32,000 nucleotides of DNA from Paenibacillus montaniterrae (GTDB taxonomy: Bacteria > Bacillota > Bacilli > Paenibacillales > Paenibacillaceae): NCBI RefSeq assembly GCF_018403185.1, contig NZ_BOSE01000012.1:94194-126193 (forward strand), in the 5' to 3' direction. Below are positions 7,832 through 31,090 of this stretch, piece by piece (positions within the stretch are counted from its first letter, which is position 1; the number at the start of each line of letters is the position of its first letter). The notes under the pieces were generated by a model. It ran no database searches and had not been told where the DNA came from. It saw nothing but the letters and a program-made list of their open reading frames with translations. Both the position numbers and the translations under genes were made by a program.

Positions 7832-7838
7832 ATCAATT

Positions 7839-8651: not shown

Positions 8652-8664
8652 TAGAACTTTCCAG

Positions 8665-8693
8665 AAAAAGGCTGCCGTCAGGCAGCCTTTTTT
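8665..8693 (+). terminator. Rho-independent terminator after flagellin 2
   Basis: aaaaaGGCTGCC-gtca-GGCAGCCtttttt. The GC core stem is a perfect 7 bp, extended by A/T pairs, with a T6 tail. Confidence 0.85.
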
Positions 8694-8695
8694 GT

Positions 8696-8723
8696 TAATG
8701 AAACATTTCTGAAATTCCGATAT
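8696..8723 (+). promoter_or_regulatory. Sigma-D type promoter heading the glycosylation island
   Basis: tCCGATAT lies at 8716-8723 (consensus GCCGATAT). TAAT at 8696-8699 sits 16 nt upstream. The site lies directly after the flagellin-2 terminator and 39 nt before ATG 8762. Confidence 0.5.
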
Positions 8724-8761
8724 AGTAAGTAGAATACAAAATGAACGTTAGGAGATTTAAA

Positions 8762-10989: not shown

Positions 10990-11012
10990 TTCAAACTTTA
11001 TATTATGAATAA

Positions 11013-12002
<990 letters not shown>

Positions 12003-12021
12003 ATATGTAAGGAGAACGAAA

Positions 12022-13182: not shown

Positions 13183-13220
13183 CTTAAATTTTCAGTGAGA
13201 CTATTCATAAGAGGTGTAGT

Positions 13221-14462: not shown

Positions 14463-14499
14463 GTTTTAGGTGAATGTACATAGCAGAGGTGTGGGGATT

Positions 14500-15630: not shown

Positions 15631-15667
15631 TTGCTCGCAAAATTACAAAACTTTATTTCGCGAGCAA
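15631..15667 (+). other. Inverted repeat (hairpin) directly after the GT56 stop codon
   Basis: TTGCTCGC (15631-15638) pairs with GCGAGCAA (15660-15667) as perfect 8-bp arms, extendable by AAA/TTT. No T-run follows. Confidence 0.4.
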
Positions 15668-15769
15668 TAGTCAATGTCTATATTAGAGAGTAAGTTTAGT
15701 AAGTTTAATTATTATTTCAGTGAAAATATAGAGTAAGTTCATTTTGATACAGGAAGGGAAAATCAACCA

Positions 15770-16645
15770 ATGAAAGGCGTTATTTTAGCCGCTGGTACTG
15801 GTTCAAGATTGTTTCCATTAACTAAATCAATATCCAAACATCTATTACCGATTTATGACAAGCCTATGGTGTATTACCCTCTGTCAGTACTTATGTTGTC
15901 TGAAATTAGAGAGATATGTATTATTACCAATGAAGAGGATAGATATTTATATGAAGCGTTGCTAGGAGATGGAAACCAATTTGGTATTTCAATAACTTAC
16001 TTATCACAAAAGAGCCCTAATGGAATAGCAGAAGCATTTTTAATAGCAGAAGAATTTATTGGACAAGAGACAGTATGTTTAATTTTAGGAGATAATGTTT
16101 TCTTTGGTCAAGGCTTCACTCCGGTCTTAAGAAAAGCAGTAAAATTGAAAGAGGGAGCAATTGTTTTCGGTTATCCGGTTCATGATCCTGAAAGATTTGG
16201 TATCGTACAATTTGATGAATGTAAAAATGCTATCTTGTTAGAGGAAAAGCCAAAAAATCCTTCATCTCAATATGCTGTGACAGGCTTGTATTTTTACGAT
16301 AGCTCTGTAGTTAATATAGCTAAAACTTTAAAAGCCTCTGAGCGAGGTGAATTAGAGATTACAGATGTAAATAAAGCATATTTAGAAAGAAAAAAGTTAA
16401 AGGTTGAAATACTTGGTCGAGGATTTACATGGTTAGATGCAGGAACCTTTAGTAGCTTGTTGGAAGCTAGTCAATTTGTAGAAACAATCGAGAAGCGGCA
16501 GGGTTATAAGATTGCATGTTTGGAAGAAATTGCATTCAACCAAGGTTGGATTACACAGGAAGAAGTTTTGAGTACAGCTAGACGATATAAAAATAATGAC
16601 TACGGAAAATATTTATTTAAGTTAGTAGGTGATATACTTGATTAA
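15770..16645 (+). CDS. rmlA: Glucose-1-phosphate thymidylyltransferase RmlA
   Basis: MKGVILAAGTGSRLFPLTKSISKHLLPIYDKPMVYYPLSVLM and YLSQKSPNGIAEAF, GDNVFFG, LEITDVN are canonical RmlA/RfbA motifs. The protein is 291 aa. Confidence 0.93.
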   Translation: MKGVILAAGTGSRLFPLTKSISKHLLPIYDKPMVYYPLSVLMLSEIREICIITNEEDRYLYEALLGDGNQFGISITYLSQKSPNGIAEAFLIAEEFIGQETVCLILGDNVFFGQGFTPVLRKAVKLKEGAIVFGYPVHDPERFGIVQFDECKNAILLEEKPKNPSSQYAVTGLYFYDSSVVNIAKTLKASERGELEITDVNKAYLERKKLKVEILGRGFTWLDAGTFSSLLEASQFVETIEKRQGYKIACLEEIAFNQGWITQEEVLSTARRYKNNDYGKYLFKLVGDILD

Positions 16646-17783
16646 ATTTAACATTGCTCCAGTAGCGGGACAAGAAATAGAATTCATTCAAGATGCAATA
16701 AATTCCAGACATTTATGCGGAGATGGAAAATATACAGAGCTATGCAGTAAATGGTTAGAGAAAACAACCGGAACACCCAAAGTGTTACTAACAACAAGCT
16801 GTACACATGCGTTGGAAATGGCTGCACTCTTATTTGATATAAAACATGGTGATGAAGTAATTATGCCGTCATATACGTTTGTATCGACTGCTAATGCTTT
16901 TGTACTGCGTGGTGCTAAAATTATATTTGTCGATATACGTCCTGATACTATGAATATTGATGAAACAAAAATAGAGGCGGCTATCACTAACAGAACTAAA
17001 GTTATAGTTCCTGTCCATTACGCTGGTGTTGCATGTGAGATGGACACAATAATGAATATTGCTGAGCGATACAATTTATATGTGGTAGAAGATGCTGCGC
17101 AAGGTATTATGTCTACATATAAAGGAAGAATGTTAGGTAGTATTGGGCATCTAGGTACCTTTAGCTTTCATGAAACGAAAAATCTTGTTTGTGGGGAAGG
17201 AGGTGCGCTATTAGTAAACGATAGAAGACTTATAGAGAGAGCAGAAATTATTAGGGAAAAGGGAACAAATCGTTCACAGTTTATTAGTGGACGGGTTGAT
17301 AAATATACGTGGAGAGATATAGGGTCATCATATCTAATGTCCGAACTTACAGCTGCATATTTATATTCACAACTAATTAATGCACAGTATATTACTAAAA
17401 AGAGATTGAAATTATGGAGTATATATTACCAATACTTATATAATTTTATTGATATTTACGATATAGAGCTTCCTTGTATACCAAATACGGTAGAACATAA
17501 TGGTCACCTATTTTTCATTAAACTAAAGAATAAGAAAACAAGAGATAACTTAATTGAATATTTGAAAGATCGAGGTATACAAGCAACGTTCCATTACATT
17601 CCTCTTCATACAACAGAAACTGGAAAGAAATACGGGGAGTTTCATGCCTCTGATAATATGACTTGTGAGCAAAGTGATAAATTATTAAGACTACCGATGT
17701 TTTTTTCTTTAGAAGAGGAAACAGTAATACAAATCTGCAATGTAGTAGTAGATTACCTTAAGAAGGCGAGGGAGAAAATATGA
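16638..17783 (+). CDS. dTDP-4-amino-4,6-dideoxyhexose transaminase, WecE/RffA-like (PLP-dependent, DegT family)
   Basis: Long blocks match E. coli WecE as I recall it: GDEVIMPSYTFVSTANAFVLRGAKIIFVDIRPDTMNIDE, VIVPVHYAGVACEMDTIM, VVEDAAQGIMSTYKGR, FSFHETKN, ERAEIIREKGTNRSQF and VDKYTWRDIGSSYLMS. The start is TTG 16638 (giving MIKFNIAPV) or GTG 16629, and it overlaps the rmlA stop. Confidence 0.9.
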   Translation: MIKFNIAPVAGQEIEFIQDAINSRHLCGDGKYTELCSKWLEKTTGTPKVLLTTSCTHALEMAALLFDIKHGDEVIMPSYTFVSTANAFVLRGAKIIFVDIRPDTMNIDETKIEAAITNRTKVIVPVHYAGVACEMDTIMNIAERYNLYVVEDAAQGIMSTYKGRMLGSIGHLGTFSFHETKNLVCGEGGALLVNDRRLIERAEIIREKGTNRSQFISGRVDKYTWRDIGSSYLMSELTAAYLYSQLINAQYITKKRLKLWSIYYQYLYNFIDIYDIELPCIPNTVEHNGHLFFIKLKNKKTRDNLIEYLKDRGIQATFHYIPLHTTETGKKYGEFHASDNMTCEQSDKLLRLPMFFSLEEETVIQICNVVVDYLKKAREKI

Positions 17784-18979
17784 AAGGACAGAAAATTATG
17801 ATCGTAGCTGGAGGTGAGTGGCAGGTACCTATTATAAAAAAGGCTAAACAACTGGGGCTTCGTGTAATGAATACCAATTTGTATCAAGATTCTCCAGGCT
17901 TCCAATATGCTGATGAAAGTGCAGTTGCTGATGTCCTGGACTATAAAACCAATTTGCAGATAGCGGAGGCTTATAAACCTAATGCGATTATTACTGATCA
18001 GAGTGATATTGCGGTAAAAACAGTAGCACGGTTATGTGAAAGACTGAAACTAAAGGGAATTACTGAAAAGATTGCTGATCTATTTACGAATAAGTATCTT
18101 ATGAGAATGTTTTGCAAGGAACATGGATTTGATATACCAAGATTTGAACTATGCTGCAGTTTGCAGGAAGCTGAGACAGCATCCGAAAAAATCGGTTATC
18201 CGCTTGTAATGAAGCCTTTAAGAAATCAATCTAGCAGAGGTGTGTTTGTAGTTTATAATAAGGCCGAACTATTCCAAAAGTTCAATTTAACCCTTCAATT
18301 TTCTGAATCTGGTGAAGTGTTAGTTGAGGAATTTATTGACGGTAAAGAATTTACTGTAGAAGGATTCATGTTCAGTGATCGCCACATATCATTGGCAGTA
18401 TCAGCAAAGGATTATTTAAAAGATAATATTGCGATAGCAACAAGATTGGTATATAGTCATGAAAATTTTGATTTTAACTACGATTGTTTGAAAATTCAAA
18501 ATAATAATTTAGTAGAAACAATGAAACTCCCTTTTGGTATTACACATGCTGAGTACAAATACAAAGAGGGGAGGTTCTACTTGATTGAAATTGCAGCTCG
18601 AGGAGGAGGTACTAAAATTTCTTCTGATATCGTTCCACTAGTTTCGGGTGTTGACGTAAATGAACTACTTATAAGAAGTGCCTTGGGAGAGGAAATAAAA
18701 TCAGGGGATATTTCCCTAATGCAAAAATCAGTTGCGATTTTAGATTTTTTTATACTACCAACAGGAAGAGTTAAGAGTATCATAGGTGCGGAAGAGATAA
18801 CAATGATTCCAGGAGTAGTTGATTTTAAATTAAATTTTAAAGCGGGAGATACAATAAGTACACCTAATGATGATCGTTCTAGAGTAGGTTACTATATTGC
18901 ACATGCATCCTATAAGGAGAGTTTACTTTCCTTGGCTGAATATATTAAATTGAAGTTGAAGGTAATTTACGATGAATAA
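17780..18979 (+). CDS. ATP-grasp domain protein (carboxylate-amine ligase family), copy 1
   Basis: YPLVMKPLRNQSSRGVFVV, LVEEFIDGKEFTVEG and YLIEIAARGGG are ATP-grasp motifs. The ATGA start overlaps the transaminase stop. Confidence 0.8.
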   Translation: MKGQKIMIVAGGEWQVPIIKKAKQLGLRVMNTNLYQDSPGFQYADESAVADVLDYKTNLQIAEAYKPNAIITDQSDIAVKTVARLCERLKLKGITEKIADLFTNKYLMRMFCKEHGFDIPRFELCCSLQEAETASEKIGYPLVMKPLRNQSSRGVFVVYNKAELFQKFNLTLQFSESGEVLVEEFIDGKEFTVEGFMFSDRHISLAVSAKDYLKDNIAIATRLVYSHENFDFNYDCLKIQNNNLVETMKLPFGITHAEYKYKEGRFYLIEIAARGGGTKISSDIVPLVSGVDVNELLIRSALGEEIKSGDISLMQKSVAILDFFILPTGRVKSIIGAEEITMIPGVVDFKLNFKAGDTISTPNDDRSRVGYYIAHASYKESLLSLAEYIKLKLKVIYDE

Positions 18980-19736
18980 ACTGAACATATTTGATTCGCA
19001 TTTGCATTTTAATATGAATACGGCAGATCCTTATAAGGATCTAGTAACACAAATAACTTCTAGTCAAATGAAAGGCTGCTTGTTAATTTTAAATTATGAA
19101 AATGAACGGAATTATTTTATGAATAATATACAACTTTTACAAGCTCTTGATATTCAACTCGAAGTTGCTCTTATGCTTGATTTTCAAAACATAGATTACG
19201 AAATTATTAAACAGTGTTACTTGAAGAACATTGAGTTTTCAATTAAAATCCACCCTCGTCTCTCTAATATTACTTTAGGTGACTTTAATAAAATCCTCCT
19301 CGCACTTCAGAAAATTAATTACAAACATATCATAGTTGATGGATTTTATTATGGGCCTAATTTAAGGTCACATATAAATATTGAGCTATTAATTTTTTTG
19401 TCAAAATACTTACCCAGTAAAAGAATTCTCTTTGCTCATTCTGGAGGTCATAAGATATTAGAAACAATGCTATATACTAGGAATTTAGACAATATATATT
19501 ATGACTTGTCATTCACACAAAATTATTTTAAAAATACTTCGATCAGCCTTGATATTATTAATTTTATTAAATTTAACTACGGTAAAATTTTATTCGGTTC
19601 GGATTACCCAGAATTTTCGATAGAAGACAGTAAAAAACAGTTGTTAATTTATATGAATAAAGCAGGGTTGAGTTTCGAGGCTCAGAATAAAATTTTAATT
19701 GAAAATAGTTTGAGTTTTTTTCGAGATGGAGGATAA
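18972..19736 (+). CDS. Amidohydrolase-2 superfamily (TIM-barrel metal-dependent hydrolase, hydratase or decarboxylase family) protein
   Basis: The N-terminal IFDSHLHF (HxH), KIHPRLS, FAHSGG and GSDYPE follow the ordered ligand pattern of amidohydrolase-2 proteins. The protein is 254 aa. Confidence 0.65.
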   Translation: MNKLNIFDSHLHFNMNTADPYKDLVTQITSSQMKGCLLILNYENERNYFMNNIQLLQALDIQLEVALMLDFQNIDYEIIKQCYLKNIEFSIKIHPRLSNITLGDFNKILLALQKINYKHIIVDGFYYGPNLRSHINIELLIFLSKYLPSKRILFAHSGGHKILETMLYTRNLDNIYYDLSFTQNYFKNTSISLDIINFIKFNYGKILFGSDYPEFSIEDSKKQLLIYMNKAGLSFEAQNKILIENSLSFFRDGG

Positions 19737-19740
19737 GTAT

Positions 19741-20373
19741 ATGCAAAAAAAAATTATAGAGTATATAAAGAAGAATAGGGTTTCTTCGACGGAAATAGCC
19801 GACTGTCTAGGTAAACAAGGAGTAGTGTCAGGTGTTAAAGCAATAAATAGAGGGAAATTTAAAGTAGGGAATGTTTTTTGGGTCTATGCATACGGGGGAA
19901 GTAATTGGGATATGCATGAACAAATTCAGGGGGTAAAAGAAGGAGATGTAGTTTTTATTGAAGTGTTTGATTGTGAGGACAAAGCAATATTTGGGGATCT
20001 AGTAGCCAAGTATTTGCTACTTTATAGACAAGCAAGCGCAATTGTTGTAAATGGTAATGTACGTGATGTTCCAAGACTAATTAAGGAAAACTGGCCGATT
20101 TGGTGTGTTGGATATAATCCTGTTGGGTGCCATAATGAAAAATTAGATTTTGAGCTAGATAAAAAAATAATAGACAATAAAAGACAAATTTATAGTGGCG
20201 CTATAGCAGTTTGTGATGATACTGGCGTAGTAATAATTCCAAAAGAGTGTATAAATGATGATTTCATGATTAGGATGGAAGAAATCGAAGAACAAGAAGA
20301 TATTTGGTTTGACTGTATTGATAGGAAAAAAATGAGTACTTTTGAGACTGTCTGTTTGAAAAAGTATTTATAA
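19741..20373 (+). CDS. RraA-like / class II aldolase-like (HMG/CHA aldolase, oxaloacetate decarboxylase family) protein
   Basis: STEIADCLGKQGV, GDVVFIEV, AIFGDLVAKYLLLYRQASAIVVNGNVRDVPRL and PIWCVGYNPVG fit the RraA/demethylmenaquinone-methyltransferase-like fold pattern. The start is ATG 19741, 8 nt after GGAGG. The ORF-track start at 19726 overlaps the upstream gene. Confidence 0.68.
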   Translation: MQKKIIEYIKKNRVSSTEIADCLGKQGVVSGVKAINRGKFKVGNVFWVYAYGGSNWDMHEQIQGVKEGDVVFIEVFDCEDKAIFGDLVAKYLLLYRQASAIVVNGNVRDVPRLIKENWPIWCVGYNPVGCHNEKLDFELDKKIIDNKRQIYSGAIAVCDDTGVVIIPKECINDDFMIRMEEIEEQEDIWFDCIDRKKMSTFETVCLKKYL

Positions 20374-20396
20374 TCCTGATTGGAAGTGGTGCCAAG

Positions 20397-21086
20397 ATGA
20401 AAATTTCGAATAAAGACCTAAGAAGTATAATCGAGCGTTACGAAGATAGATATAGTAAATATGGCTATTCTCCAATTACATTAGGTTGGGATAAAGGCAA
20501 ACAATTTATTCGTTTTGATATTTTATTAGATTACTTTGACTTGGATAACCGTACTTTTCTTGATATAGGATGCGGGTTTGGAGACCTTTGTTTTTATTTA
20601 AATCAAAAAGTTTCTGCCTTTCAGTATCTTGGTGTCGATATTGTTCCTAAGTTAATAGAGATTGCCAATGAGCGTTATTCTAATAATACAACTATGTTTC
20701 TGGAAGGGGATTTCTTAAACATGGAATTTATGGAAAACTCCTTTGACTATGTTATTGGTTCAGGTATTTTTAATTTTAAACTGCAAGATGTTGATAACTA
20801 CGAATATGTTTATTCTATTATGAAAGAAAGTTTTTATGTAGCTAGACACGGAGTTGCTTTTAATTTTTTATCCGATCAGGTAGATTTTCATAAAGAAATA
20901 ACTTTTCATTCAAATCCACTAAAGATTTTGGAGTTTGCTTATAGTTTATCAAAAAATGTAGTACTTCGGAATGATTACATGCCATTTGAATTTACAATAT
21001 ATATATTTAAAGATGATTCTTTCCATAAAGCTGATACTTTGTTTAATAAATATAAAGAAGAAAAAGGGATAAGAAATGTTTTCTAA
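20397..21086 (+). CDS. Class I SAM-dependent methyltransferase
   Basis: Motif I FLDIGCGFGDL is followed by YLGVDIVP and FDYVIGSGIF. The protein is 229 aa. Confidence 0.8.
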   Translation: MKISNKDLRSIIERYEDRYSKYGYSPITLGWDKGKQFIRFDILLDYFDLDNRTFLDIGCGFGDLCFYLNQKVSAFQYLGVDIVPKLIEIANERYSNNTTMFLEGDFLNMEFMENSFDYVIGSGIFNFKLQDVDNYEYVYSIMKESFYVARHGVAFNFLSDQVDFHKEITFHSNPLKILEFAYSLSKNVVLRNDYMPFEFTIYIFKDDSFHKADTLFNKYKEEKGIRNVF

Positions 21087-22236
21087 AACCATAGAAAGAT
21101 TAAATCGCCCTGCCTCTATGAGAATCGCATCTTTGGCAAAAAAATTAAAAGCTGGTGGACACGACATTCTTGATTTAACGTTGGGGCAGCCTGACTTACC
21201 AGTACACTATAATATTATTGAATCGGTTCACGAATGCTTGCTTAGTGGAAAGACAGGTTATACAGAATCTCAAGGTATATTAGAACTAAGAGAACAAATC
21301 AGTGTATATGAAAGTGAAAAATGGGGATATCCAATTTCTGCTGATCAAGTATTAGTATCCCCTGGGGGAAAGCAAGCTATTTATTATGCGCTGAGAACAT
21401 TAGTTAATCCATTAGACGAAGTTATTATAATTGAGCCTTGTTGGCTGAGTTATAAAGAGTTAATTGAGATGGTTGGTGGTAAAGCGGTTATACTTAATAC
21501 GGACCCTAATAAAAATTTTGTTGTTTCTATTCATGAGATATTAGCGAAGATCACCTCTAAAACTAAAGCTATTATCTTAAATGTACCAAATAATCCAACA
21601 GGGTCCATTTATCCATCAGATACTATTAAAATGTTAATCCGATATTCCGCAGCGCATCAAATTTTCTTAATATTTGATAATATATATGATGAAATTATTT
21701 TTGATGATGAGAAGATAGAATATTCTTTGGAACCACTACAGTGTGAAAAGCTTATAATAGTAAACGGATTTTCTAAAAGCTTTTCCATGACAGGCTTTAG
21801 AGTAGGCTATGTCATTAGCCATGAGATTATAATGGAGCAAATGATAAAGGTTCATGAGCAGTTAGCTACATGCACATCAATTGTTTCACAATATGCAGCT
21901 TTAGCTGCATTGAGAATTGAAAAATCTTATTTAGAAAAACGAAAAGAGGTATTTGAAAGAAGGAGAGATTTTGTTGTAAACAGATGTAGGGAATTAAATA
22001 TAGATCTAATAGTTCCTCAAGGTGGGATTTATTGTTTGATCGATACACGTAGTATTAACTCAAGTTCTGTTGTAGCAGCGGAAAAAATATTGCAACATGC
22101 ACTAGTTGCTGTAATACCTGGAGTTGTATATGGTATCTCTAGTGAAGGTTATGTTCGAATCTCGTTAGTGGGAGATGAAGCAATATTAGAGGAAGCACTG
22201 AAGCGAATAAGCGATTTGATGGAATTGACTTTATAA
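21076..22236 (+). CDS. PLP-dependent aminotransferase, class I/II (aspartate-aminotransferase fold)
   Basis: SPGGKQA, NVPNNPTG and the PLP-lysine motif NGFSKSFSMTGFRVGY are present, with a C-terminal VRISL. The protein is 386 aa. Confidence 0.88.
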   Translation: MFSKTIERLNRPASMRIASLAKKLKAGGHDILDLTLGQPDLPVHYNIIESVHECLLSGKTGYTESQGILELREQISVYESEKWGYPISADQVLVSPGGKQAIYYALRTLVNPLDEVIIIEPCWLSYKELIEMVGGKAVILNTDPNKNFVVSIHEILAKITSKTKAIILNVPNNPTGSIYPSDTIKMLIRYSAAHQIFLIFDNIYDEIIFDDEKIEYSLEPLQCEKLIIVNGFSKSFSMTGFRVGYVISHEIIMEQMIKVHEQLATCTSIVSQYAALAALRIEKSYLEKRKEVFERRRDFVVNRCRELNIDLIVPQGGIYCLIDTRSINSSSVVAAEKILQHALVAVIPGVVYGISSEGYVRISLVGDEAILEEALKRISDLMELTL

Positions 22237-22360
22237 AAGACTTTATAAAGATTGTTGGAGTTAAGTGAATGATTTGGTGTAAATTTTAAAATATATGCAG
22301 ACGATACTAACCAGTATGAGAAATAATTTGTTAAATCAAATTTGTTAAGGGGGTTCGAAG

Positions 22361-23389
22361 GTGTATATATTAGTTACAGGAGGAGCTGGCTTTATTGGTT
22401 CAAATTTTATTGAGTATTATCTACAACAACATCCTGATGTGAAAATAGTAAATTTGGATTTACTCACCTATGCAGCTCATTTGCAGAATCTAGAGAGCTG
22501 TAATCAGAGTAACAAATACAGTTTTGTACATGGAGACATATGTGACAGGGATCTCGTTAAACATTTGTTTGAACATTATAATTTTGAAGGTGTAATTCAT
22601 TTTGCAGCGGAATCACACGTAGATAATTCTATTAAGAATCCCAGTTCTTTTGTTACTACAAATATCAACGGAACTTTTACATTGTTAAGTGTTGCTCAAC
22701 AGCATTGGATGAAAGCTCCATTTAAGTATAAAAGAAATTATGAACATTGTAGATTTCTTCACATTTCGACTGATGAGGTATACGGGACTTTAGGTAAAAC
22801 GGGGTACTTCACAGAACAATCGCCATATGCACCTAATAGTCCTTATTCTGCTAGTAAGGCAGCCTCAGATTTTTTAGTACGGAGTTACTACCATACTTAT
22901 GGTTTGAATGTGGTCACGACAAATTGCTCAAACAATTATGGCCCAAGACAGCATGATGAAAAGTTTATTCCTACTATTATTCGTAAAGCTATTTCTTTTG
23001 AGCCAATTCCTATATATGGAACTGGACTTAATATAAGGGATTGGCTGTATGTTAAGGAGCATTGTCGTGCTATTGATCTTGTATTTAACAATGGTAAGGT
23101 AGGAGAGACCTATTTAATAGGTGGAAGTAATGAGCATTCTAACATGAATATTGCACTATTGGTATGCTCTATTCTTGATGAATTATTGGTAGACGAACTT
23201 CAACATAAAGAAGTAACTTCCTTTACGGAACTAATAGAATTTGTAAATGATCGTGAAGGTCACGATTTTAGGTACGCTATAGATGCTAGTAAAATAAAAA
23301 AAGAATTAGGTTGGTTTCCACAAGGTAATTTTGAAGTGTTGTTAAGGGAAACAATATTATATTATTTAGATCGATATCAATTGAAGTGA
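22361..23389 (+). CDS. rmlB: dTDP-glucose 4,6-dehydratase RmlB
   Basis: ILVTGGAGFIGSNF, NLDLLTYAA, HFAAESHVDNSI, STDEVYG, SPYSASKAASD and NCSNNYGPRQHDEKFIP are canonical RmlB motifs. The GTG start lies 7 nt after AAGGGGG. Confidence 0.93.
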   Translation: MYILVTGGAGFIGSNFIEYYLQQHPDVKIVNLDLLTYAAHLQNLESCNQSNKYSFVHGDICDRDLVKHLFEHYNFEGVIHFAAESHVDNSIKNPSSFVTTNINGTFTLLSVAQQHWMKAPFKYKRNYEHCRFLHISTDEVYGTLGKTGYFTEQSPYAPNSPYSASKAASDFLVRSYYHTYGLNVVTTNCSNNYGPRQHDEKFIPTIIRKAISFEPIPIYGTGLNIRDWLYVKEHCRAIDLVFNNGKVGETYLIGGSNEHSNMNIALLVCSILDELLVDELQHKEVTSFTELIEFVNDREGHDFRYAIDASKIKKELGWFPQGNFEVLLRETILYYLDRYQLK

Positions 23390-23417
23390 ATAGCAGACTA
23401 TAAAGTGAGGAAAGTCA

Positions 23418-24350
23418 ATGACAAACATACTTATAACAAGTGCTGCAAATAAAGTGCCATTAATAGAATGTTTTAAAAAATTGTTAGGGTTCTCGGCTAA
23501 GATTTTTATTGCAGATTGTGCAGACAATAATATAGCAAAATACTTTGCAGATCAGTTTATTAAAGTTGTACCTTTAAAAGACTCTGTTATTGAGGACTAT
23601 ATTTTATTATGTAGAAAATATCAAATAAAATATATCATTCCTACAAGAGAAGAGGATTTGCTATTTTTTTCACTTTATAGAGATCGACTGGAAATTCAAG
23701 GGGTATATGTTCTTGTATCCTCAGTGGAAGCAATTAGAATTACAAATGATAAACTTAAATTTTACAAAGTTTTAAATGCTGAAAATTTACCTGTCATTCC
23801 TACTTTCTTGACGACAGAACAGTTCCATGAAAAAACAAGATTAGTAGTGAAAGAACGATTTGGGGCAGGATCGAAGAAAATATTCGTTAACTTAGATAAG
23901 GAGCAAGCAGTACAAGTATCGTACCAGCTAGAGAATCCAATAGTTCAGCCTTATATAGTTGGAAAAGAATACAGTGTAGACGTTTACATTACAAGGAAAA
24001 AGCAGGTTAAGGCAGTAGTAGTTCGTGAACGTCAACTTATAGTCGATGGAGAATCACAGATTACAAAAGTCTTAGATCATCCAAGCATATCAGGCTTAAT
24101 CAGCAAAGCAGCGTTGCTGTTGGGCTTAGAAGGCCATGTTATGTTTCAAGTTTTTGAAGATGAGCATGAAATGCTATGGATAATAGAATGCAATGCTCGG
24201 ATTGGAGGAGCTTCTACCTTAAGTATGTATGCTGGATTAGACTCTATTAATTGGTGGATTTCAGAATGTGGCGGAAAAAATGTTGCAGAATCGCCAGTAG
24301 TGATAAAAAAGATAAAGCAAGTTCGTTATAAAAAGGATTTACTTTTATGA
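23418..24350 (+). CDS. ATP-grasp domain protein, copy 2 (310 aa)
   Basis: LVVKERFGAGSKKIF, VQPYIVGKEYSVDVY and WIIECNARIGGAS are ATP-grasp motifs. The fold is the same as the 17780 gene but the sequences clearly differ. Confidence 0.8.
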   Translation: MTNILITSAANKVPLIECFKKLLGFSAKIFIADCADNNIAKYFADQFIKVVPLKDSVIEDYILLCRKYQIKYIIPTREEDLLFFSLYRDRLEIQGVYVLVSSVEAIRITNDKLKFYKVLNAENLPVIPTFLTTEQFHEKTRLVVKERFGAGSKKIFVNLDKEQAVQVSYQLENPIVQPYIVGKEYSVDVYITRKKQVKAVVVRERQLIVDGESQITKVLDHPSISGLISKAALLLGLEGHVMFQVFEDEHEMLWIIECNARIGGASTLSMYAGLDSINWWISECGGKNVAESPVVIKKIKQVRYKKDLLL

Positions 24351-25042
24351 GAAAAGTGATTGTTTTTGATTTGGATGATACACTATATGATGAATATGAA
24401 TATGTGAAAAGTGGGTTCCAAGCAGTTAGTGAATACCTATGGAGAGAATTTGGATTTGATACAAATGAAACTTATAACCGGATGTGGAACAGTTTAAAGT
24501 GTGAGGGTAGAGGAACCATATTTGATGGTTTGCTGAAATACTTTGGAATAACTCAACGAAAATATGTTAAAAAATGTTTATCAGTTTATCGGTTACATCA
24601 ACCAGAAATAATTTTACCTAAAGAGTCTAATGAAATACTGAGACAGTTGCACAAAAAAGTACCGCTATATTTAGTCACAGATGGGAATAAGGTTGTTCAG
24701 GCAAATAAGATTTATGCTTTAAGGTTAGAGATGTACATGAAAAAGTGCTATATTACTTACCGGTATGGTCATGCTAAAAGTAAACCATCCCCGTATTGTT
24801 TCCAGCTTATAGCAAAAAGCGAAGGGGTATCGACTGCAGATATTGTTTATATAGGGGATAATCCTAAAAAAGATTTTGTTGGAATCAAGCCGCTCGGCTT
24901 TAGAACAATTAGGGTGATGACAGGACAGCATTCTCAAGTAGAGATGCCTATACAATACGAGGCAGAATTAAGAATTAATCATATTTCTGATTTGATTCCT
25001 GCTTTAAAGCAAATATGGTGCAATTTTGTAATCGAGGGATAA
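24347..25042 (+). CDS. HAD-superfamily hydrolase or phosphatase
   Basis: Motif I is VIVFDLDDTLYDE (DxDxT), motif II is LVTDGN, and motif IV is YIGDNPKKDF. The ATGA start overlaps the upstream stop. Confidence 0.82.
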   Translation: MRKVIVFDLDDTLYDEYEYVKSGFQAVSEYLWREFGFDTNETYNRMWNSLKCEGRGTIFDGLLKYFGITQRKYVKKCLSVYRLHQPEIILPKESNEILRQLHKKVPLYLVTDGNKVVQANKIYALRLEMYMKKCYITYRYGHAKSKPSPYCFQLIAKSEGVSTADIVYIGDNPKKDFVGIKPLGFRTIRVMTGQHSQVEMPIQYEAELRINHISDLIPALKQIWCNFVIEG

Positions 25043-25047
25043 TTGTT

Positions 25048-25770
25048 ATGAATGTAATCGTTATAATTCAAGCAAGGATGGGATCTAAAAGACTACCTGG
25101 AAAAGTACTGAAAAAACTTGGAAGTACAGATGCTTTAAATTATTGTGTAAAGCGATGTAGCAAGATTAAAGGAGTTTCAGATGTAATTATTGCGACTTCA
25201 AACTTATCTCAAGATGATGCTATCGTTCAATGGTGCAAAACGTATAATGTCAAGTTCTTTCGAGGCTCTGAGGAAGATGTACTAGAAAGGTACGTTCAAT
25301 GCGCATGTACTTACAACCCCAAGTACGTGATACGTGTAACGGCTGATTGTCCGTTTGTAGACTATGAAATGGCTAGTGGTATAGTAGATTTTATTAAGCA
25401 GCAGCAGGTCGATATAGTAGATTTGGGAGCGACCTTGCCACGAGGCCTTGCGGTAGAAGCAATTTCCTACTCCGCCCTGCAATATATAGATCAGCATGGT
25501 CAGGAGCCGCGCCACCGCGAGCATGTGACCTACTATGCCTATGAATACAAAGATCAATTTACTAGAGCTACGTATCAACCGCCTAAAAATCGTTTGCATC
25601 CTGAGCTGCGCATTACACTGGATACAGAGGAAGATTACACGATGCTTGCTGCCGTAGCCCAGCATTTCAATGATCCGTATATACCCAGCAGCGAGGTCAT
25701 TAAGTACTTGCTTGAGCATCCTGAAATTGCTGCGTTAAATGCTCATGTGGAGCAAAAGCCAGTCATATGA
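25048..25770 (+). CDS. pseF: SpsF-type cytidylyltransferase, a putative CMP-nonulosonate (pseudaminic acid) synthetase
   Basis: MNVIVIIQARMGSKRLPGKVL and VIRVTADCPF are SpsF/acylneuraminate-cytidylyltransferase-family motifs. It is directly coupled to pseG. The start is ATG 25048; the ORF-track start at 25015 overlaps the HAD gene. Confidence 0.78.
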   Translation: MNVIVIIQARMGSKRLPGKVLKKLGSTDALNYCVKRCSKIKGVSDVIIATSNLSQDDAIVQWCKTYNVKFFRGSEEDVLERYVQCACTYNPKYVIRVTADCPFVDYEMASGIVDFIKQQQVDIVDLGATLPRGLAVEAISYSALQYIDQHGQEPRHREHVTYYAYEYKDQFTRATYQPPKNRLHPELRITLDTEEDYTMLAAVAQHFNDPYIPSSEVIKYLLEHPEIAALNAHVEQKPVI

Positions 25771-26753
25771 AGCAAGTATTAATAAGAACGGACGCTTCTA
25801 CTGCCATTGGCAGCGGGCATGTGATGCGGTGCCTGACAATAGCGAAGCATTTAAGGCGATTAGGCCATCATATACAGTTTTGGATGGAAATGCTGCCAGG
25901 TAATCTCATCGATTTGGTGCAGAGAGAAGGGTTTTCTGTAACAGAGCAGGAGATTGCTGTTGATCTGCTTATTGTAGATCATTATCAGCTGGACATAGAG
26001 TGGGAGCAAGCGATGCGGGCTGTGGCCAACAAAATCGTTGTTATTGACGATCTGGCTAATCGGCGCCATGACTGTGATTTACTGCTCGATCAAAATGTTG
26101 TTGCAGGCTATAAGCAGCGCTATGATCAATTGGTACCGGAGCATTGCATAAAGCTGCTTGGCCCTGCTTATTTAATTATGCGTGATGAATTTATTGAAGC
26201 TAGACAGCTTGCCGAGGTTCGTGATGGACATGTGCAGCGCCTGCTTGTATTTATGGGCGGCAGCGATCCAACTGGTGAAACGCTCAAGGTGCTGGATGCT
26301 TTAAGGCAAACTGCAACCAGCTTCAAGCATGTTGACATCGTGGTTGGCAGCAGCAATCCAAGTCGCGATTCAATAAAGCAGTATTGTGCAGAGCTGCAGC
26401 TTCATTATCATTGCCAAATTAACTATTTAGCGGAGCTAATGCGGCTTGCAGACTTTGCAATTGGAGCAGGCGGCTCGGCTATGTGGGAGCGCTGCTTTGT
26501 TGGCTTGCCGTCCTCAAGCACTGTGGTGGCGGACAATCAGCGTCTGACGACAGACAAGGCGACTGAGCTGGGAGCTATTATTCATTTGGGCTGGCACGAA
26601 GATGTCACTTCTGCCAGCTATTTGCGGCTATTGGATCAATTGCCGTTGCTTGGTGATCAGCTTGCAGCAATGAGCAGGCAAGGATTGACTATAACGGAAA
26701 GCCAGGGGAGTGCTAACGCTTGGCTTCAAGAAATGGTGGGGTTATTTGCGTGA
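25767..26753 (+). CDS. pseG: UDP-2,4-diacetamido-2,4,6-trideoxy-beta-L-altropyranose hydrolase PseG
   Basis: The N-terminus VLIRTDASTAIGSGHVMRCLTIAKHL, DHY and GGSD match the PseG/SpsG family pattern. At 328 aa it has no fused acetyltransferase domain. Confidence 0.87.
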   Translation: MKQVLIRTDASTAIGSGHVMRCLTIAKHLRRLGHHIQFWMEMLPGNLIDLVQREGFSVTEQEIAVDLLIVDHYQLDIEWEQAMRAVANKIVVIDDLANRRHDCDLLLDQNVVAGYKQRYDQLVPEHCIKLLGPAYLIMRDEFIEARQLAEVRDGHVQRLLVFMGGSDPTGETLKVLDALRQTATSFKHVDIVVGSSNPSRDSIKQYCAELQLHYHCQINYLAELMRLADFAIGAGGSAMWERCFVGLPSSSTVVADNQRLTTDKATELGAIIHLGWHEDVTSASYLRLLDQLPLLGDQLAAMSRQGLTITESQGSANAWLQEMVGLFA

Positions 26754-27796
26754 TTAAAATCGGACATAAGGAAATTGGACGTCATACAAAACCATTTATT
26801 ATCGCGGAAATGTCGGGCAATCATAATCAATCACTAGAGCGAGCGCTGCATTTGGTGGAGCTGGCGGCACAGGCCAGAGTCGATGCAGTTAAGCTGCAAA
26901 CCTATACGCCAGACACGATCACGCTCGATGTACATACAGGAGAATTTTTTATCTCCAATCAGGATGATTTGTGGAAAGGGCAATCACTGTACCAGTTGTA
27001 TCAAAAAGCGTACACGCCATGGGAGTGGCATAAGGCGATTTTTGACAAATGCAAGGAGCTTGGACTGTTGGCGTTTAGTTCTCCTTTCGATGAAACGGCA
27101 GTTGATTTCCTTGAAACGTTGGAAGTGCCTGCCTATAAGATTGCTTCATTTGAAAATGTAGATATTCCTTTAATCCGCAAGGTGGCAAAAACTGGGAAGC
27201 CCGTTATTATTTCTACAGGGATGGCTACTGCTGCAGAGCTTGATGAAGCAGTGCGTGCGGTTAGAGGCGAAGGAAACAACCAGCTTGTCCTGTTGAAATG
27301 TACAAGTACCTATCCAGCTACTCCAGAAAACTCAAATCTGGCTACTATCCCGCATATGGCTGAGCTGTTCCAAACACAGATTGGCTTATCCGACCATACG
27401 ATGGGGATTGGTGTTGCTGTAGCTGCTGTAACACTGGGCGCTACTGTCATTGAGAAGCATTTTACGACCTCGCGCGCAGAAGGCGGTGTAGATGCTGCTT
27501 TCTCGATGGAGCCGCATGAGCTGAAAATGCTGGTAGAAGAAACGGAACGGGCGTGGCTAAGCATTGGCCATGTGCAATACGGTCCAACCGAAGCAGAAAA
27601 GCCTTCTATTAAAAATAGAAGATCGCTATACATCGGCGAGGATATGAAGGCTGGCGATATTTTAACTGAACGCAGCCTGCGCAATGTGCGCCCAGGCTTG
27701 GGACTGGAAACGAAATATTATGATCTAGTGCTGGGCAAAGCTGTGAAAAAGGACGTCAAGAAAGGAACAGCATTGAGCTGGGATTTGCTGCTATGA
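26750..27796 (+). CDS. pseI: Pseudaminic acid synthase PseI (NeuB family)
   Basis: PFIIAEMSGNHNQSLERALHLVELAAQARVDAVKLQTY, YKIASFE, ISTGMAT, LLKCTSTYPA, LSDHT and the C-terminal SAF-like RSLY...AGDILT fit PseI. The likely GTG 26750 start overlaps the pseG stop (GTGA) and follows GGTGGGG. Confidence 0.92.
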   Translation: MIKIGHKEIGRHTKPFIIAEMSGNHNQSLERALHLVELAAQARVDAVKLQTYTPDTITLDVHTGEFFISNQDDLWKGQSLYQLYQKAYTPWEWHKAIFDKCKELGLLAFSSPFDETAVDFLETLEVPAYKIASFENVDIPLIRKVAKTGKPVIISTGMATAAELDEAVRAVRGEGNNQLVLLKCTSTYPATPENSNLATIPHMAELFQTQIGLSDHTMGIGVAVAAVTLGATVIEKHFTTSRAEGGVDAAFSMEPHELKMLVEETERAWLSIGHVQYGPTEAEKPSIKNRRSLYIGEDMKAGDILTERSLRNVRPGLGLETKYYDLVLGKAVKKDVKKGTALSWDLLL

Positions 27797-28938
27797 ACAA
27801 GCGACAATCATTTCTACCATATGGTCAGCAGTGGATCGAAGAGGACGATATTGCTGCAGTAATCGAGACACTTAAGTCTCCCTATTTAACGACGGGGCCG
27901 AAAATAGCCCAGTTTGAGCAGGCAGTAGCCGACTACGCAGGTGCAGCATATGCTGTAGCTTTTGCCAATGGTACGGCTGCTCTGCACGGAGCATGCTATG
28001 CTGCCGGTATTGCGGAAGGTGACGAGGTGATTACGACACCTATTACGTTTGCGGCAAGTGCCAATTGTGCGCGTTACTTTGGGGCAAGTATCGTATTTGC
28101 TGATATCGACGAAAAAACATACAATATTGACCCTGATCAACTGATTCGCAGCATAAGTCCGAAAACGAAGGCGATTGTGCCTGTAGATTTCACAGGTCAG
28201 CCTTGTGATATCGATACGATTATGGATATTGCCAAAAGGTATGGGCTCGTTGTCATTCAAGATGGAGCACACTCATTAGGTGCGGAGTATAAGGGGAAAA
28301 GAGTTGGCACTCAAGCGGATATGACGATGTTCAGCTTTCATCCTGTCAAGCCTGTTACGACGGCTGAGGGCGGAGTAATTGTAACAGATAACCCGGAATA
28401 TTATGAGAAGCTTAAGCTGTTTCGCACGCATGGGATCGCAACGACGACTTACGCCAAGGAGCAGGGAGATTGGTACTATGAGATGGTCGATCTTGGCTTC
28501 AACTATCGGATGACGGACTTGCAGGCAGCGCTTGGCATCTCACAAATGGGCAAGCTGCAGCAATTTATAGAGCGAAGACGAGAATTGGCAGCACTGTACA
28601 CTAAGCTGCTGCGTAATGTACGCGGCGTAACGCCACCTTATCAAGCGCCTGAAGCCCTTTCCGGCTGGCATTTGTATTCTGTTCAGCTAAACGAACAGGA
28701 GCTTGGCATGAGCCGCAAGCAAATTTTTGATCAAATGCGTTCAGCCAATATCGGTGTACATGTTCACTATATTCCTGTTTACTGGTTTCCGTACTATCAA
28801 AGATTAGGGTACGAAAAGGGACTGTGTCCAGTGGCTGAGAAGTGGTATGAAGGGGCATTGACGCTTCCGTTGTATCCGAAAATGACAGATCAGGATGTGC
28901 ACGAGGTAGTCGCTGTGCTAAAAAATATTATAGGTTAG
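27793..28938 (+). CDS. pseC: UDP-4-amino-4,6-dideoxy-N-acetyl-beta-L-altrosamine transaminase PseC
   Basis: FLPYGQQWIEEDDIAAVIETLKSPYLTTGPKIAQFE, NGTAALH, ITFAASAN, DGAHSLGA and FSFHPVKPVTTAEGG are PseC/DegT motifs including the PLP lysine. The ATGA start overlaps the upstream stop. Confidence 0.92.
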   Translation: MNKRQSFLPYGQQWIEEDDIAAVIETLKSPYLTTGPKIAQFEQAVADYAGAAYAVAFANGTAALHGACYAAGIAEGDEVITTPITFAASANCARYFGASIVFADIDEKTYNIDPDQLIRSISPKTKAIVPVDFTGQPCDIDTIMDIAKRYGLVVIQDGAHSLGAEYKGKRVGTQADMTMFSFHPVKPVTTAEGGVIVTDNPEYYEKLKLFRTHGIATTTYAKEQGDWYYEMVDLGFNYRMTDLQAALGISQMGKLQQFIERRRELAALYTKLLRNVRGVTPPYQAPEALSGWHLYSVQLNEQELGMSRKQIFDQMRSANIGVHVHYIPVYWFPYYQRLGYEKGLCPVAEKWYEGALTLPLYPKMTDQDVHEVVAVLKNIIG

Positions 28939-28950
28939 GAAGAAGCAAGC

Positions 28951-30276
28951 ATGAATGAGCGAGAGCAAATGAATACGCTTTTTGATCGGTTATTTCCGCT
29001 TCTCCGCAGCATTACAGGAGAAGGCTTGAGAGAGACGTTGTCTATTCTTAGTGAGCATGTGCCGCTTGAAATAGAAGAGGTTGCTTCAGGAACGAAGGTA
29101 TTCGACTGGACGATCCCTAAAGAATGGGTTTTGCGAGAAGCATGGATTAAAAATGAAGCCGGGCAAGACATTGTGAATGTGAAGCAGAGCAATCTTCATA
29201 TTTTAAACTACAGTGAGCCTGTCGATAAAATAGTAGATCTGGAGGAGCTAAAACAACATGTCTATACGATACCTCATTTGCCGCATGCCATTCCCTATGT
29301 CACTTCCTATTATAAGGAGCGTTGGGGCTTTTGCATGTCACATGAGCAGCTCAGCAGCTTGTCAGAGGGCAGCTACCATGTCTACATCGACAGCGAGAAG
29401 ATCGATGGTGGACTAAATTATGGACAAGCTGTGCTGCCTGGCAGAAGTGAGAAGGAAGTGCTCATCTCGACCTATGTCTGCCATCCTTCATTGGCAAACA
29501 ATGAGCTGAGTGGACCGATTGTGGCGGCATTTTTATACAACCGCATTAAGAAGTGGAAGGATAGAGAATTTACTTACCGCTTTGTATTTCATCCCGAAAC
29601 GATTGGCTCGATAGCTTACTTAGCTAAAAATGGCGAACACTTGAGGCAGCATGTTTATTCAGGCTGCGTCTTGACCTGTCTGGGCGGTAAGGATAAACCA
29701 TTGAATTATAAAATGGCGCGCAGCACTCAAGCGCCGCTTAATCGCTTGCTGGATTATTTAGTTGTCCATGAAAAGCGGGGCTATACGATTAGAGCTTTCT
29801 CGCCATTGAACGGCTCGGATGAACGCCAGTTTTGCTCGCCCGGCTTTAATTTGCCAGTGGGGCAATTTTCGCGAATGGTATACGGGCAATATCAAGGCTA
29901 TCATAATTCGTTGGACACGAAGGAAGCAATGACGATTGAAGCACTGCAGCAAAGCGTCGATGAAATTGAAGAAATATTAAAGCTGCAGGAGCTGGACGGC
30001 AAATATATCAATTTGAAGCCTTTTGGCGAGCCAATGCTTAGCCAATATGAGCTGTATCCCGATATTAATTCTCCAACAAGCTGGAAGGAATCCAATAGCA
30101 GAGTGATAGATAATCGGCAAATGCTGAACCAAATATTAATGACGTTGAATTATGGAGACGGCGAGCATTATTTGACCGACATTGCCAAAAAGCTGAACTA
30201 TCCTTTGCAAGACTATGAGCTAAGTACAAGAAAGCTAATCGAAGTAGGCCTGCTGCAAGGACCAATTCGAGATTAA
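28951..30276 (+). CDS. Aminopeptidase-like domain protein (COG4310 / DUF4910 family), function unknown
   Basis: The N-terminus LFDRLFPLLRSITGEGLRETLSIL...FDWTIPKEW and the central NNELSGPIVAAFLY are characteristic of this family. It recurs in polysaccharide and nonulosonate clusters. The protein is 441 aa. Confidence 0.78.
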   Translation: MNEREQMNTLFDRLFPLLRSITGEGLRETLSILSEHVPLEIEEVASGTKVFDWTIPKEWVLREAWIKNEAGQDIVNVKQSNLHILNYSEPVDKIVDLEELKQHVYTIPHLPHAIPYVTSYYKERWGFCMSHEQLSSLSEGSYHVYIDSEKIDGGLNYGQAVLPGRSEKEVLISTYVCHPSLANNELSGPIVAAFLYNRIKKWKDREFTYRFVFHPETIGSIAYLAKNGEHLRQHVYSGCVLTCLGGKDKPLNYKMARSTQAPLNRLLDYLVVHEKRGYTIRAFSPLNGSDERQFCSPGFNLPVGQFSRMVYGQYQGYHNSLDTKEAMTIEALQQSVDEIEEILKLQELDGKYINLKPFGEPMLSQYELYPDINSPTSWKESNSRVIDNRQMLNQILMTLNYGDGEHYLTDIAKKLNYPLQDYELSTRKLIEVGLLQGPIRD

Positions 30277-30292
30277 AGCGAGGTAAGCCGAT

Positions 30293-31090
30293 ATGAAAGT
30301 GATCATAATGACAGGTTCGCACCCAAGGCATTATTATGTAGCTGAGCAATTAATCAAGACAGGAAAAGTAGTTGGCTGTCTAATTGAGCATAGAGAGAGC
30401 TTTGTTCCTGATCCGCCAGCTTCATTAAATGATCAGGACAAGCAAAACTTTATTCGTCATTTCCATGATCGAGACCAGTCGGAGCGTGCGATGTTTCCTT
30501 CGACTATAACGATACCGGATAGCGTTTCCGTAAGAAACGTTACGATTGATCAGCTGAATAGCCCGGAAACGATCAAGTGGATGACTTCCCTTGAGGCAGA
30601 TGTGCTGATCAGCTATGGTGTGCATAAGTTAAGCAACGAGCTGTTGGCAGAAGCGCCTGAGTATGCATGGAATATTCATGGCGGGCTGTCTCCGTGGTAC
30701 CGCGGCACGACAACTCTATTTTGGCCATTTTATATGCTGCAGCCGAATTGGGCGGGGATGACCGTTCATAAGCTGACAGCCAAGCTGGATGCAGGAGATA
30801 TTTTGCATCATTCTGTCCCTGAGCTTAACTATGGTGACGGTATACACGATGTGGCTAATAAGGCGGTAAAGCAGGTTGCGGAGGATTTAAGCTACATATT
30901 AACGAACCTAAAGCTTGAGGAGCTCAGCTTTGTGCCGCAAAAATCAGCGGGCAAGCTGTTCTTATCTTCGGATTGGAAGCCAGAGCATTTAAGAGTGATC
31001 TATCAGCTTTTTGACAATAACATTGTAGATCGTTTTTTGGATGGAGAATTCCCTCGTACTGAGCCTCCTTTAGTACGAGCTTTTCATTGA
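30293..31090 (+). CDS. Formyltransferase-family protein (Fmt N-domain-like)
   Basis: WNIHGGLSPWYRGTTTLFW corresponds to the formyltransferase HxSLLPxxRG loop. The downstream MTVHKLTAKLDAGDIL corresponds to the xxD(T/A)GxI motif. The protein is 265 aa. Confidence 0.8.
   Translation: MKVIIMTGSHPRHYYVAEQLIKTGKVVGCLIEHRESFVPDPPASLNDQDKQNFIRHFHDRDQSERAMFPSTITIPDSVSVRNVTIDQLNSPETIKWMTSLEADVLISYGVHKLSNELLAEAPEYAWNIHGGLSPWYRGTTTLFWPFYMLQPNWAGMTVHKLTAKLDAGDILHHSVPELNYGDGIHDVANKAVKQVAEDLSYILTNLKLEELSFVPQKSAGKLFLSSDWKPEHLRVIYQLFDNNIVDRFLDGEFPRTEPPLVRAFH

Follow-up and report, generated by a model that had tools for sequence, protein, structure and literature searches.

Capsule and O-antigen switching by recombination in the flanks is known from the cps locus of Streptococcus pneumoniae, located between dexB and aliA, and from the rfb locus of Escherichia coli, located between galF and gnd. 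Strains of Alteromonas macleodii exchange "replacement" flexible genomic islands by recombination, among them the flagellum-glycosylation island fGI3, and the flanks of these islands are dense in single-nucleotide polymorphisms (SNPs) (PMC3698932). The flagellin glycosylation islands of Geobacillus lie about 10% below the genome in guanine plus cytosine (G+C) content and comprise five types that are discordant with the species phylogeny (De Maayer and Cowan 2016; PMC5109656). They carry variable flagellin genes on their 5' side together with PseC, PseF, PseG and PseI, but no PseH, and their horizontal acquisition was inferred (PMC5109656). In the summary given by PMC13317340, Clostridium botulinum and Pseudomonas aeruginosa have flagellar glycosylation islands that are described as recombination hotspots, with sites proposed in flagellar genes. 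Here we describe a 32,000-nt stretch of the Paenibacillus montaniterrae genome (contig NZ_BOSE01000012.1; hereafter the window), in which a low-GC block is set between flagellar genes and pse genes, and in which base composition changes abruptly within an intact pseF-like gene. Our analysis makes it highly probable that the window carries a replacement-type flagellin glycosylation island, and that the step within pseF is the right-hand seam of the replacement. As in Geobacillus, this is a flagellar locus of the Bacillales, with 5' flagellins, low G+C and no PseH. The Geobacillus islands were typed by gene content, transposase and endonuclease genes were reported among them, and their crossover points were left unmapped (PMC5109656). 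In contrast, the island described here has no mobile-element genes and both of its seams lie within conserved genes.

The right-hand seam was mapped against the sole close relative found to bear an alternative cassette, the Logan contig SRR16278221_260 (loci L014 and L015). In an ungapped comparison of the two pseF genes, the 5' segment of the window allele proved foreign with respect to the relative, its synonymous differences being saturated (proportion of differing synonymous sites, pS, 0.83), while the remainder of the gene showed only 16 differences in 378 nt. The maximum chi-square value, 142, puts the breakpoint at 25392; the highest value among 2000 permutations was 20. The same division was seen in the protein: the relative's PseF was the best non-self match among 7763 homologues, with 79% identity overall, 96% at residues 120-240 and 59% at residues 1-70. 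The features around the seam are the following:

25048..25770, + strand: pseF-like nonulosonate cytidylyltransferase, an in-frame intact chimera (PF02348 CTP_transf_3, 240 aa)
25048..25392, + strand: 5' segment of pseF of foreign origin, codons 1-115 (59% identity to the relative, with differences at 141 of 345 positions)
25393..25451, + strand: right crossover interval, the first 59 nt without a difference from the relative, from the mismatch list
25452..25476, + strand: short patch of divergence at the border of the native side, within it (8 of 25 nt differ)
25393..31090, + strand: native conserved block with the pseF 3' half, pseG, pseI, pseC, a gene for a DUF4910 protein and a formyltransferase gene (98-100% identical to the relative)

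The divergent patch at 25452-25476 could have arisen through heteroduplex repair where a recombination tract ends. Beyond it, identity to the relative stays at 98-100% out to position 32000, and the final 1.7 kb of the window has no difference at all; with downstream identity reaching 100%, the two genomes are near-clonal outside the exchanged region. Synonymous divergence between them, expressed as substitutions per synonymous site (dS), was 0.138 in the 3' part of pseF, 0.032 in pseG, 0.004 in pseI and 0 in the formyltransferase gene. These comparisons agree with the original prediction, a reading of the DNA from its letters alone, which had taken the step for the recombination seam of a replaceable cassette and had suggested aligning the locus across strains of the species: the relative has a different cassette between the same flanks. 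A crossover at a DNA motif conserved in the family was considered and rejected, since the most conserved stretches of the gene do not include the interval 25393-25451. Two patches in the downstream block, one in pseC (27846-28908, 24 SNPs) and one in the DUF4910 gene (28961-30207, 13 SNPs), are 1-2% diverged and lie between stretches that are 0-0.1% diverged; by this pattern they would be further small recombination tracts within the otherwise native pse block.

The same gene carries the step in base composition. Changepoints were fitted by maximum likelihood, with the support range taken as 2 units of log-likelihood (lnL). Over 20-31 kb the best-fit G+C changepoint was 25261, inside the open reading frame (ORF) 25048-25770 (support 25189-25401, lnL gain 107), and a local fit (24347-26753) returned 25261 again (support 25191-25430). 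Across the step, the G+C content of the pseF-like gene goes from about 0.33 to 0.46. In 300-nt windows it was 0.33-0.37 over 24.1-25.3 kb (0.34 at 25000-25299), 0.41 at 25150-25449, 0.46 at 25300-25599, and 0.44-0.51 everywhere downstream of 25.3 kb. G+C at third codon positions (GC3) was 0.10-0.20 for about the first 60 codons of pseF and 0.20-0.50 for about codons 46-125; after codon 115 it was mostly 0.4-0.65, dipping to 0.2-0.35 at codons 161-200. On a larger scale, the block at about 8.7-25.3 kb has a G+C content of 0.28-0.37 and a GC3 of 0.20-0.33, the downstream pse block has 0.44-0.49 for both measures, and the flagellar genes of the window have a G+C content of 0.42-0.47; the GC3 of the flagellins, 0.31-0.33, is island-like. 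In the host genome (6.05 Mb, 46.2% G+C), a G+C content of 0.34 or less occurs in only 1.3% of the 1-kb windows, and the longest low-GC run is this island, with 16 kb. The composition step is thus real and far outside chance. As pseF homologues showed a flat G+C profile along the gene, in low-GC taxa and in Paenibacillus alike, the step is not intrinsic to the pseF family.

The hand counts of G+C on which the step had originally been proposed were exact. All 14 recounted 60-nt lines agreed, including every line that had been cited (20/60 at 25081 and 25141, 30/60 at 25441 and 25501, 37/60 at 26461, 29/60 at 28021, 34/60 at 1021, and 17-21/60 for the island lines), and the sharp shift within an intact reading frame was confirmed by the windows, the changepoint and GC3. 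Its placement at 25300-25440 held in part: the seam in the sequence, 25392/25393, falls near the upper end of that range, but the best G+C changepoint lies upstream of it. Elsewhere in the genome we observed three more low-GC runs of 8-11 kb with a G+C content below 0.38 (C1:804001-815000, C3:381001-392000 and C7:320001-339000), which could be other surface-polysaccharide or mobile regions.

Which of the two alleles is the mosaic one was judged by dividing the gene into nt 1-180, 181-345 and 346-720. Compared with P. septentrionalis, the relative's pseF showed 78, 78 and 70% nucleotide identity over the three segments, and it was comparably close to P. oralis and P. rhizolycopersici, whereas the window's pseF showed 57, 59 and 69%. 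The best matches of the first two segments of the window allele were in Ureibacillus, Lysinibacillus and allied genera, at 67-72% nucleotide identity. Over 100+ homologues, the identities of the N and C halves of the protein were negatively correlated for the window (-0.71) and positively correlated for the relative (+0.57). In maximum-likelihood trees the C half fell within the Paenibacillus clade, and its placement with Lysinibacillus was rejected by the approximately unbiased (AU) test (p = 0.0003); the N half grouped with three Lysinibacillus sequences (98/85), outside a Paenibacillus clade supported at 100/100. A quick tree search for the N half was unreliable, the constrained tree scoring higher, and the careful tree was used. 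Together, the identities, dS and the C-half test, rather than the topology of the N half, identify the window's pseF as the mosaic allele. Because forcing the N half into the Paenibacillus clade was not rejected (AU p = 0.156), an affinity of the 5' half, and of its donor, with low-GC Bacillales is indicated as a preference rather than proof. The proposal that pseF is a chimera was therefore upheld by the differing relatives of its halves and by the seam with the relative. As for the separate phylogenies of the halves that had been suggested along with it, they gave different nearest relatives and resolved the C half, but were not decisive for the N half.

The two genes directly upstream of pseF point in the same direction. 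The best matches of the ATP-grasp and haloacid dehalogenase (HAD) proteins were in Ureibacillus massiliensis and Lysinibacillus halotolerans (52% and 62% aa identity), and the order ATP-grasp-HAD-pseF-pseG is common to these two species, Sporosarcina, Lederbergia and the window. As this order is conserved in low-GC Bacillales, a pseF-pseG pair was very probably part of the donor cassette. Apart from weak rmlB matches, the final 4.3 kb of the island (21076-25392) had no counterpart in 73 other species of the genus, and a search of 72,556 plasmids with the island's last 8 kb (17400-25392) returned rmlB matches only. Gene conversion within the genome was rejected as an origin of the 5' half, since no paralogue of pseF exists there. 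Nor was a third source supported for 25228-25392, whose best matches are in the same low-GC taxa as those of 25048-25227.

The chimeric gene seems to have retained its function. Its frame is intact over 240 codons from the ATG at 25048, the same length as in nearly all of the 7763 homologues, and for this reason 25048 is the likely start. An alternative in-frame ATG at 25015 would add 11 codons (25015-25047) and overlap the end of the HAD gene; one Logan gene call has the resulting 251 aa. The product matches PF02348 CTP_transf_3 (E 2e-27, 96.8 bits), and its closest solved relative is PDB 6oew, annotated as "cytidylyltransferase" (E 1e-33). The canonical PseF equivalog TIGR03584 gave 20.4 bits against a cut-off of 205.7, with only residues 15-83 matched. 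On these profile scores, the product is not a canonical PseF but a CTP_transf_3 cytidylyltransferase of the SpsF type in the position of PseF; this 240-aa SpsF-type family is common in Bacillales. The name given to the gene at the outset, pseF, thus fits its position and its chimeric nature but not its family. As the only cytidylyltransferase in the locus, encoded directly upstream of PseG, PseI and PseC, it would act as the cytidine monophosphate (CMP)-pseudaminate synthetase. Every residue that is invariant among 26 diverse homologues (70+ residues) is retained in the chimera. The join is in frame, without insertion or deletion, and together with the retention of all family-invariant residues it makes an active enzyme probable. 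An AlphaFold model (mean predicted local distance difference test score, pLDDT, 91.5; predicted template modelling score, pTM, 0.89) shows a single continuous alpha/beta fold. The idea that the seam coincides with a domain boundary was rejected, since it lies at the end of helix 106-119 and strand 123-126, within one fold.

The left border of the exchanged block is also an in-gene junction, located in the conserved 5' part of the first of two flagellin genes. From 6850 to 7023 there is a single mismatch with the relative (6954), and at about 7024 identity drops from about 99% to 60-70%. The features of this border and the block that it delimits are:

6955..7023, + strand: left crossover interval in the conserved 5' part of flagellin 1, with dense mismatches from 7024
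6841..7671, + strand: flagellin 1 (Flagellin_N and Flagellin_C domains)
7839..8651, + strand: flagellin 2, a tandem paralogue without counterpart in the relative, which has one flagellin gene
7024..25392, + strand: exchanged block of 18,369 nt, defined by comparison with the relative and holding the variable parts of the two flagellins and the glycosylation cassette

The relative's site is occupied by a block of 15,956 nt with a different gene content. The central domains of the flagellins are 42-65% identical to those of the relative, and the C-terminal parts 75-90%. The left anchor had been expected at the 3' end of the flagellin; this was not borne out, as identity with the relative ends in the 5' part of flagellin 1. 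The block itself had been estimated at about 16.5 kb, from 8.7 to 25.3 kb. Its left edge does correspond to a G+C changepoint, at 8688, just past the second flagellin gene, but the exchanged block measures 18.4 kb and includes both flagellins.

Some other observations concern the neighbouring flagellar genes. The flagellin pair (6760-8655) is a tandem duplication with a period of 989 nt that includes the upstream promoter/leader region; the 3' 290 nt of the two copies are 94-100% identical to each other and the central domains 55-78%, which suggests gene conversion of the conserved flagellin ends. The centre of fliD (4826-5825) is about 85% identical to that of the relative, and a stretch of flgL (2726-3425) about 88%, so that these patches diverge by 12-17% within surroundings that are 99-100% identical; from this pattern, the cap and hook-filament junction proteins seem to have been exchanged independently.

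Regarding gene content, the window contains flgN, flgK, flgL, fliW, flaG, fliD, fliS, fliT, the two flagellin genes, an unknown ORF, maf, pseB, three genes for GT2-TPR, GT4-like and GT56-like glycosyltransferases, rmlA, a DegT aminotransferase gene, and genes for an ATP-grasp protein, an amidohydrolase, an RraA-like protein, a methyltransferase and a second aminotransferase, followed by rmlB, a second ATP-grasp gene, the HAD gene, pseF, pseG, pseI, pseC and the genes for the DUF4910 protein and the formyltransferase. The flagellar region at its left, ahead of the island and the native pse block, is of the Firmicute type. FlgN, FliW, FlaG and the two flagellins were recognized by Pfam matches, and flgK, flgL, fliD, fliS and fliT were named from the ORF order and from gene calls on the relative's contig. 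The cassette genes are, in order:

9145..10989, + strand: Maf-type flagellin glycosyltransferase (PF01973 and PF20157)
11019..12002, + strand: PseB, island copy (TIGR03589, 525 bits against a cut-off of 408; 78% nucleotide identity to the relative's copy)
12022..23389, + strand: low-GC tailoring genes, GT2-TPR through RmlB (Pfam/NCBIfam matches; G+C 0.28-0.35)
23418..25042, + strand: ATP-grasp ligase and HAD hydrolase directly upstream of pseF (profile matches)

PseC (TIGR03588, 505 bits, cut-off 424), PseG (TIGR03590, 273 bits, cut-off 154) and PseI (TIGR03586, 492 bits, cut-off 340) exceeded their thresholds. PseH, as a GNAT or a left-handed beta-helix acetyltransferase, was not found among the window ORFs scanned (8741-31090). 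By gene content and position, the locus is assigned to the Maf/pseudaminic-acid flagellin glycosylation islands.

In the relative, the flanks from flgL to the flagellin 5' part on the left and from the pseF 3' part to hpf on the right are shared with the window. Its cassette comprises, upstream of pseF, genes for LuxC, LuxE, an acyl-AMP ligase, a small ORF resembling an acyl carrier protein (ACP), a GNAT, a short-chain dehydrogenase/reductase (SDR) and a GT2-TPR protein, and further genes for a UDP-glucose dehydrogenase, a 680-aa glycosyltransferase, a methyltransferase, pseB and maf; its Maf has 34% aa identity to that of the window. The right end of this block thus reads SDR-GNAT-ACP-acyl ligase-LuxE-LuxC-pseF. 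Instead of the relative's GNAT, the window has two ATP-grasp ligases and the formyltransferase. The relative's cassette has a G+C step of its own, from 0.30-0.37 (maf to GT2-TPR) to 0.40-0.48 (SDR to LuxC), located at the intergenic GT2-TPR/SDR border (L015 14542-14572), about 5.3 kb upstream of pseF. P. septentrionalis, too, has upstream of pseF a LuxC/LuxE/ligase module. Two cassette types were found in all, the remaining two Logan contigs being identical to the window.

As the original prediction had stated, the window has no integrase or transposase: no such domain was found in ORFs of at least 100 aa scanned against Pfam/NCBIfam, a set from which the FlgK, FlgL, FliD and FliS ORFs were left out. 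Neither a tRNA gene nor bracketing direct repeats were present. Both seams lie in genes common to donor and recipient, which together with the lack of mobile elements is the signature of replacement by homologous recombination, and this is the mechanism that we infer. The incoming block of about 18.4 kb would have consisted of the flagellin variable parts, maf, pseB, the three glycosyltransferase genes, a dTDP-aminosugar/acyl-tailoring set and an ATP-grasp-HAD-pseF(5') module. The pseF-pseG genes of the donor would have paired with the resident pse genes, leading to a crossover inside pseF. Codons 1-115 come from the imported AT-rich cassette, and codon 116 onward from the resident Paenibacillus allele, continuous with pseG-pseI-pseC. 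Diversification of an exposed surface that is targeted by phage and immunity would be the likely selective driver.

Several observations weigh against this interpretation. There is a single relative with an alternative cassette, and each breakpoint therefore represents one pairwise comparison. No close donor was identified: the best match of the pseF 5' half among the 7763 homologues had 73% aa identity, and that of the adjacent ATP-grasp protein in a whole-database search 58%, with Lysinibacillus as the named top matches. The N half, as described above, could be forced into the Paenibacillus clade without being rejected by the AU test. The G+C changepoint at 25261 and the identity breakpoint at 25392 are 130 nt apart, and the stretch 25228-25392 has an intermediate GC3, yet the same low-GC-taxon affinity as the first segment. 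Finally, the seam does not coincide with DNA conserved in the family, and the pairing of alleles that are about 60% identical is unaccounted for. It is because of this last point that a two-step history appears somewhat the better account, and we lean towards it. An older join would have created the chimeric pseF, and the whole block with some of its flank would then have moved between related Paenibacillus lineages by ordinary homologous recombination, its outer crossovers lying near pseG-pseI and fliD-flagellin. Later exchanges of this sort would explain both the fall in dS with distance from the seam and the separate patches of divergence in fliD, flgL and pseC.

A direct single transfer from a distant low-GC bacterium, similar to Lysinibacillus or Ureibacillus, with the crossover exactly at 25393 and no Paenibacillus intermediate, would agree with the lack of drift of the island's GC3 (0.20-0.29) towards the host value of 0.47 and with the cassette not being found in the 73 other species of the genus. 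We consider this, the main alternative, unlikely, however, since the flank adjacent to the seam has a dS of 0.138 (pseF 3' part) and 0.032 (pseG) over a background of 0-0.004, which points to co-transfer of a Paenibacillus-type flank from another lineage, and since the seam lies outside the stretches conserved between low-GC and Paenibacillus alleles, where homology is poor. A good deal less probable is the reverse direction, in which the window arrangement would be the older one and the relative would have imported its LuxC/LuxE cassette with the 5' half of pseF. Only two haplotypes are known, and the left part of the relative's cassette, from maf to GT2-TPR, is itself low in G+C, which leaves some room for this idea; but the relative's pseF has a uniformly native G+C content (0.48), its nearest relatives are P. 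septentrionalis, P. oralis and P. rhizolycopersici in all segments, and the LuxC/LuxE/ligase module upstream of pseF is common to it and P. septentrionalis. Whichever strain received DNA last, the window allele is the mosaic one with respect to the genus.

The two remaining explanations dispense with a transfer altogether. Contigs or reads of two organisms may be joined within a conserved gene, which is a typical failure of short-read assembly with mixed samples. An artefact of this kind is extremely improbable here: the genome assembly is 99.98% complete with 0.11% contamination; the Logan assemblies of DRR272059 and DRR272107, which are maybe of the same strain or clone yet are separate assemblies, match the window at 100% identity for 11,050 and 11,708 nt spanning the seam; neither the frame nor the length of the gene nor the gene order is disturbed; and the left seam is a matching in-gene junction. 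Even less credible is that the step arose without recombination, through codon or amino-acid constraint or a fast-evolving N half. The N half is indeed slightly less conserved family-wide (mean identity 0.61, against 0.68 for the C half), but saturated dS and a GC3 shift of 0.3 within 345 nt are impossible by mutation for a strain that is 100% identical 5 kb downstream, and this explanation is refuted by the mismatches at the seam, the flat G+C of the homologues, the affinities of the segments and dS.

The position of the seam led us to look at other pseF loci. Of 75 from other Bacillales, 19 had a significant step in G+C no more than 5 kb from pseF, and in 6 of these 19 the step was within 25 nt of the pseF start, counts that are exploratory and come with no proper null model. 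In several loci (L035, L040, L043, L045, L064, L077 and L075) the strongest step lies 11-24 nt after the pseF start; such loci include two of Sporosarcina and those of Lysinibacillus telephonicus, Bacillus sp. FJAT-29790 and Schinkia azotoformans. It is conceivable, though we hold it doubtful, that the 5' end of pseF represents a recurrent docking point and that pseF-G-I-C serves as a universal right homology arm for cassettes across Bacillales families. If this were true, variable low-GC cassettes would pass between genera as far apart as Lysinibacillus and Paenibacillus, and functional chimeric cytidylyltransferases would be by-products of the exchange. The locus itself offers a base-pair view of a swap of flagellar surface chemistry in a Gram-positive soil bacterium. 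The flagellin variable domain, Maf and the sugar-tailoring genes move as one unit, which supports co-adaptation of glycan and protein, and a natural chimeric nonulosonate cytidylyltransferase could reveal which half of the fold tolerates exchange. It also calls for caution in annotation, as an intact pse gene can be half core genome and half island.

In comparison with the known systems, the likeness to capsule and O-antigen switching, raised from the beginning, is sustained when the island is set beside the cps and rfb loci: a whole low-GC polysaccharide cassette is exchanged at once, the crossovers fall in conserved flanking or shared pathway genes, and divergence of the flanks hitch-hikes with the cassette. 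Unlike in those loci, the target here is a flagellin protein glycan made in the cytoplasm, and the flagellin itself is inside the exchanged block. As in fGI3 of A. macleodii, one site holds different sets of genes for the same exposed structure in close relatives, exchange would proceed via conserved flanks without mobile-element genes, and SNP density is raised beside the island. In contrast to fGI3, the host here is Gram-positive, a Paenibacillus, the flagellin genes are transferred together with the sugar genes, and one seam falls in a 59-nt interval of a biosynthetic gene, giving rise to an in-frame chimeric enzyme. Many of the C. botulinum and P. aeruginosa islands carry transposases, unlike this one, and a seam within a nonulosonate cytidylyltransferase gene is not reported for them in the passages of PMC13317340 consulted. 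With the same locus, different content and an abrupt drop of identity at its borders, our case would, on sequence grounds, belong to the replacement-type flexible genomic islands. The mechanism is already well established for capsule, O-antigen and flagellar glycosylation loci; what this locus adds is an example from Paenibacillus in which both seams are mapped, the flagellins are transferred together with the genes for their glycosylation, and the cytidylyltransferase is an in-frame chimera.

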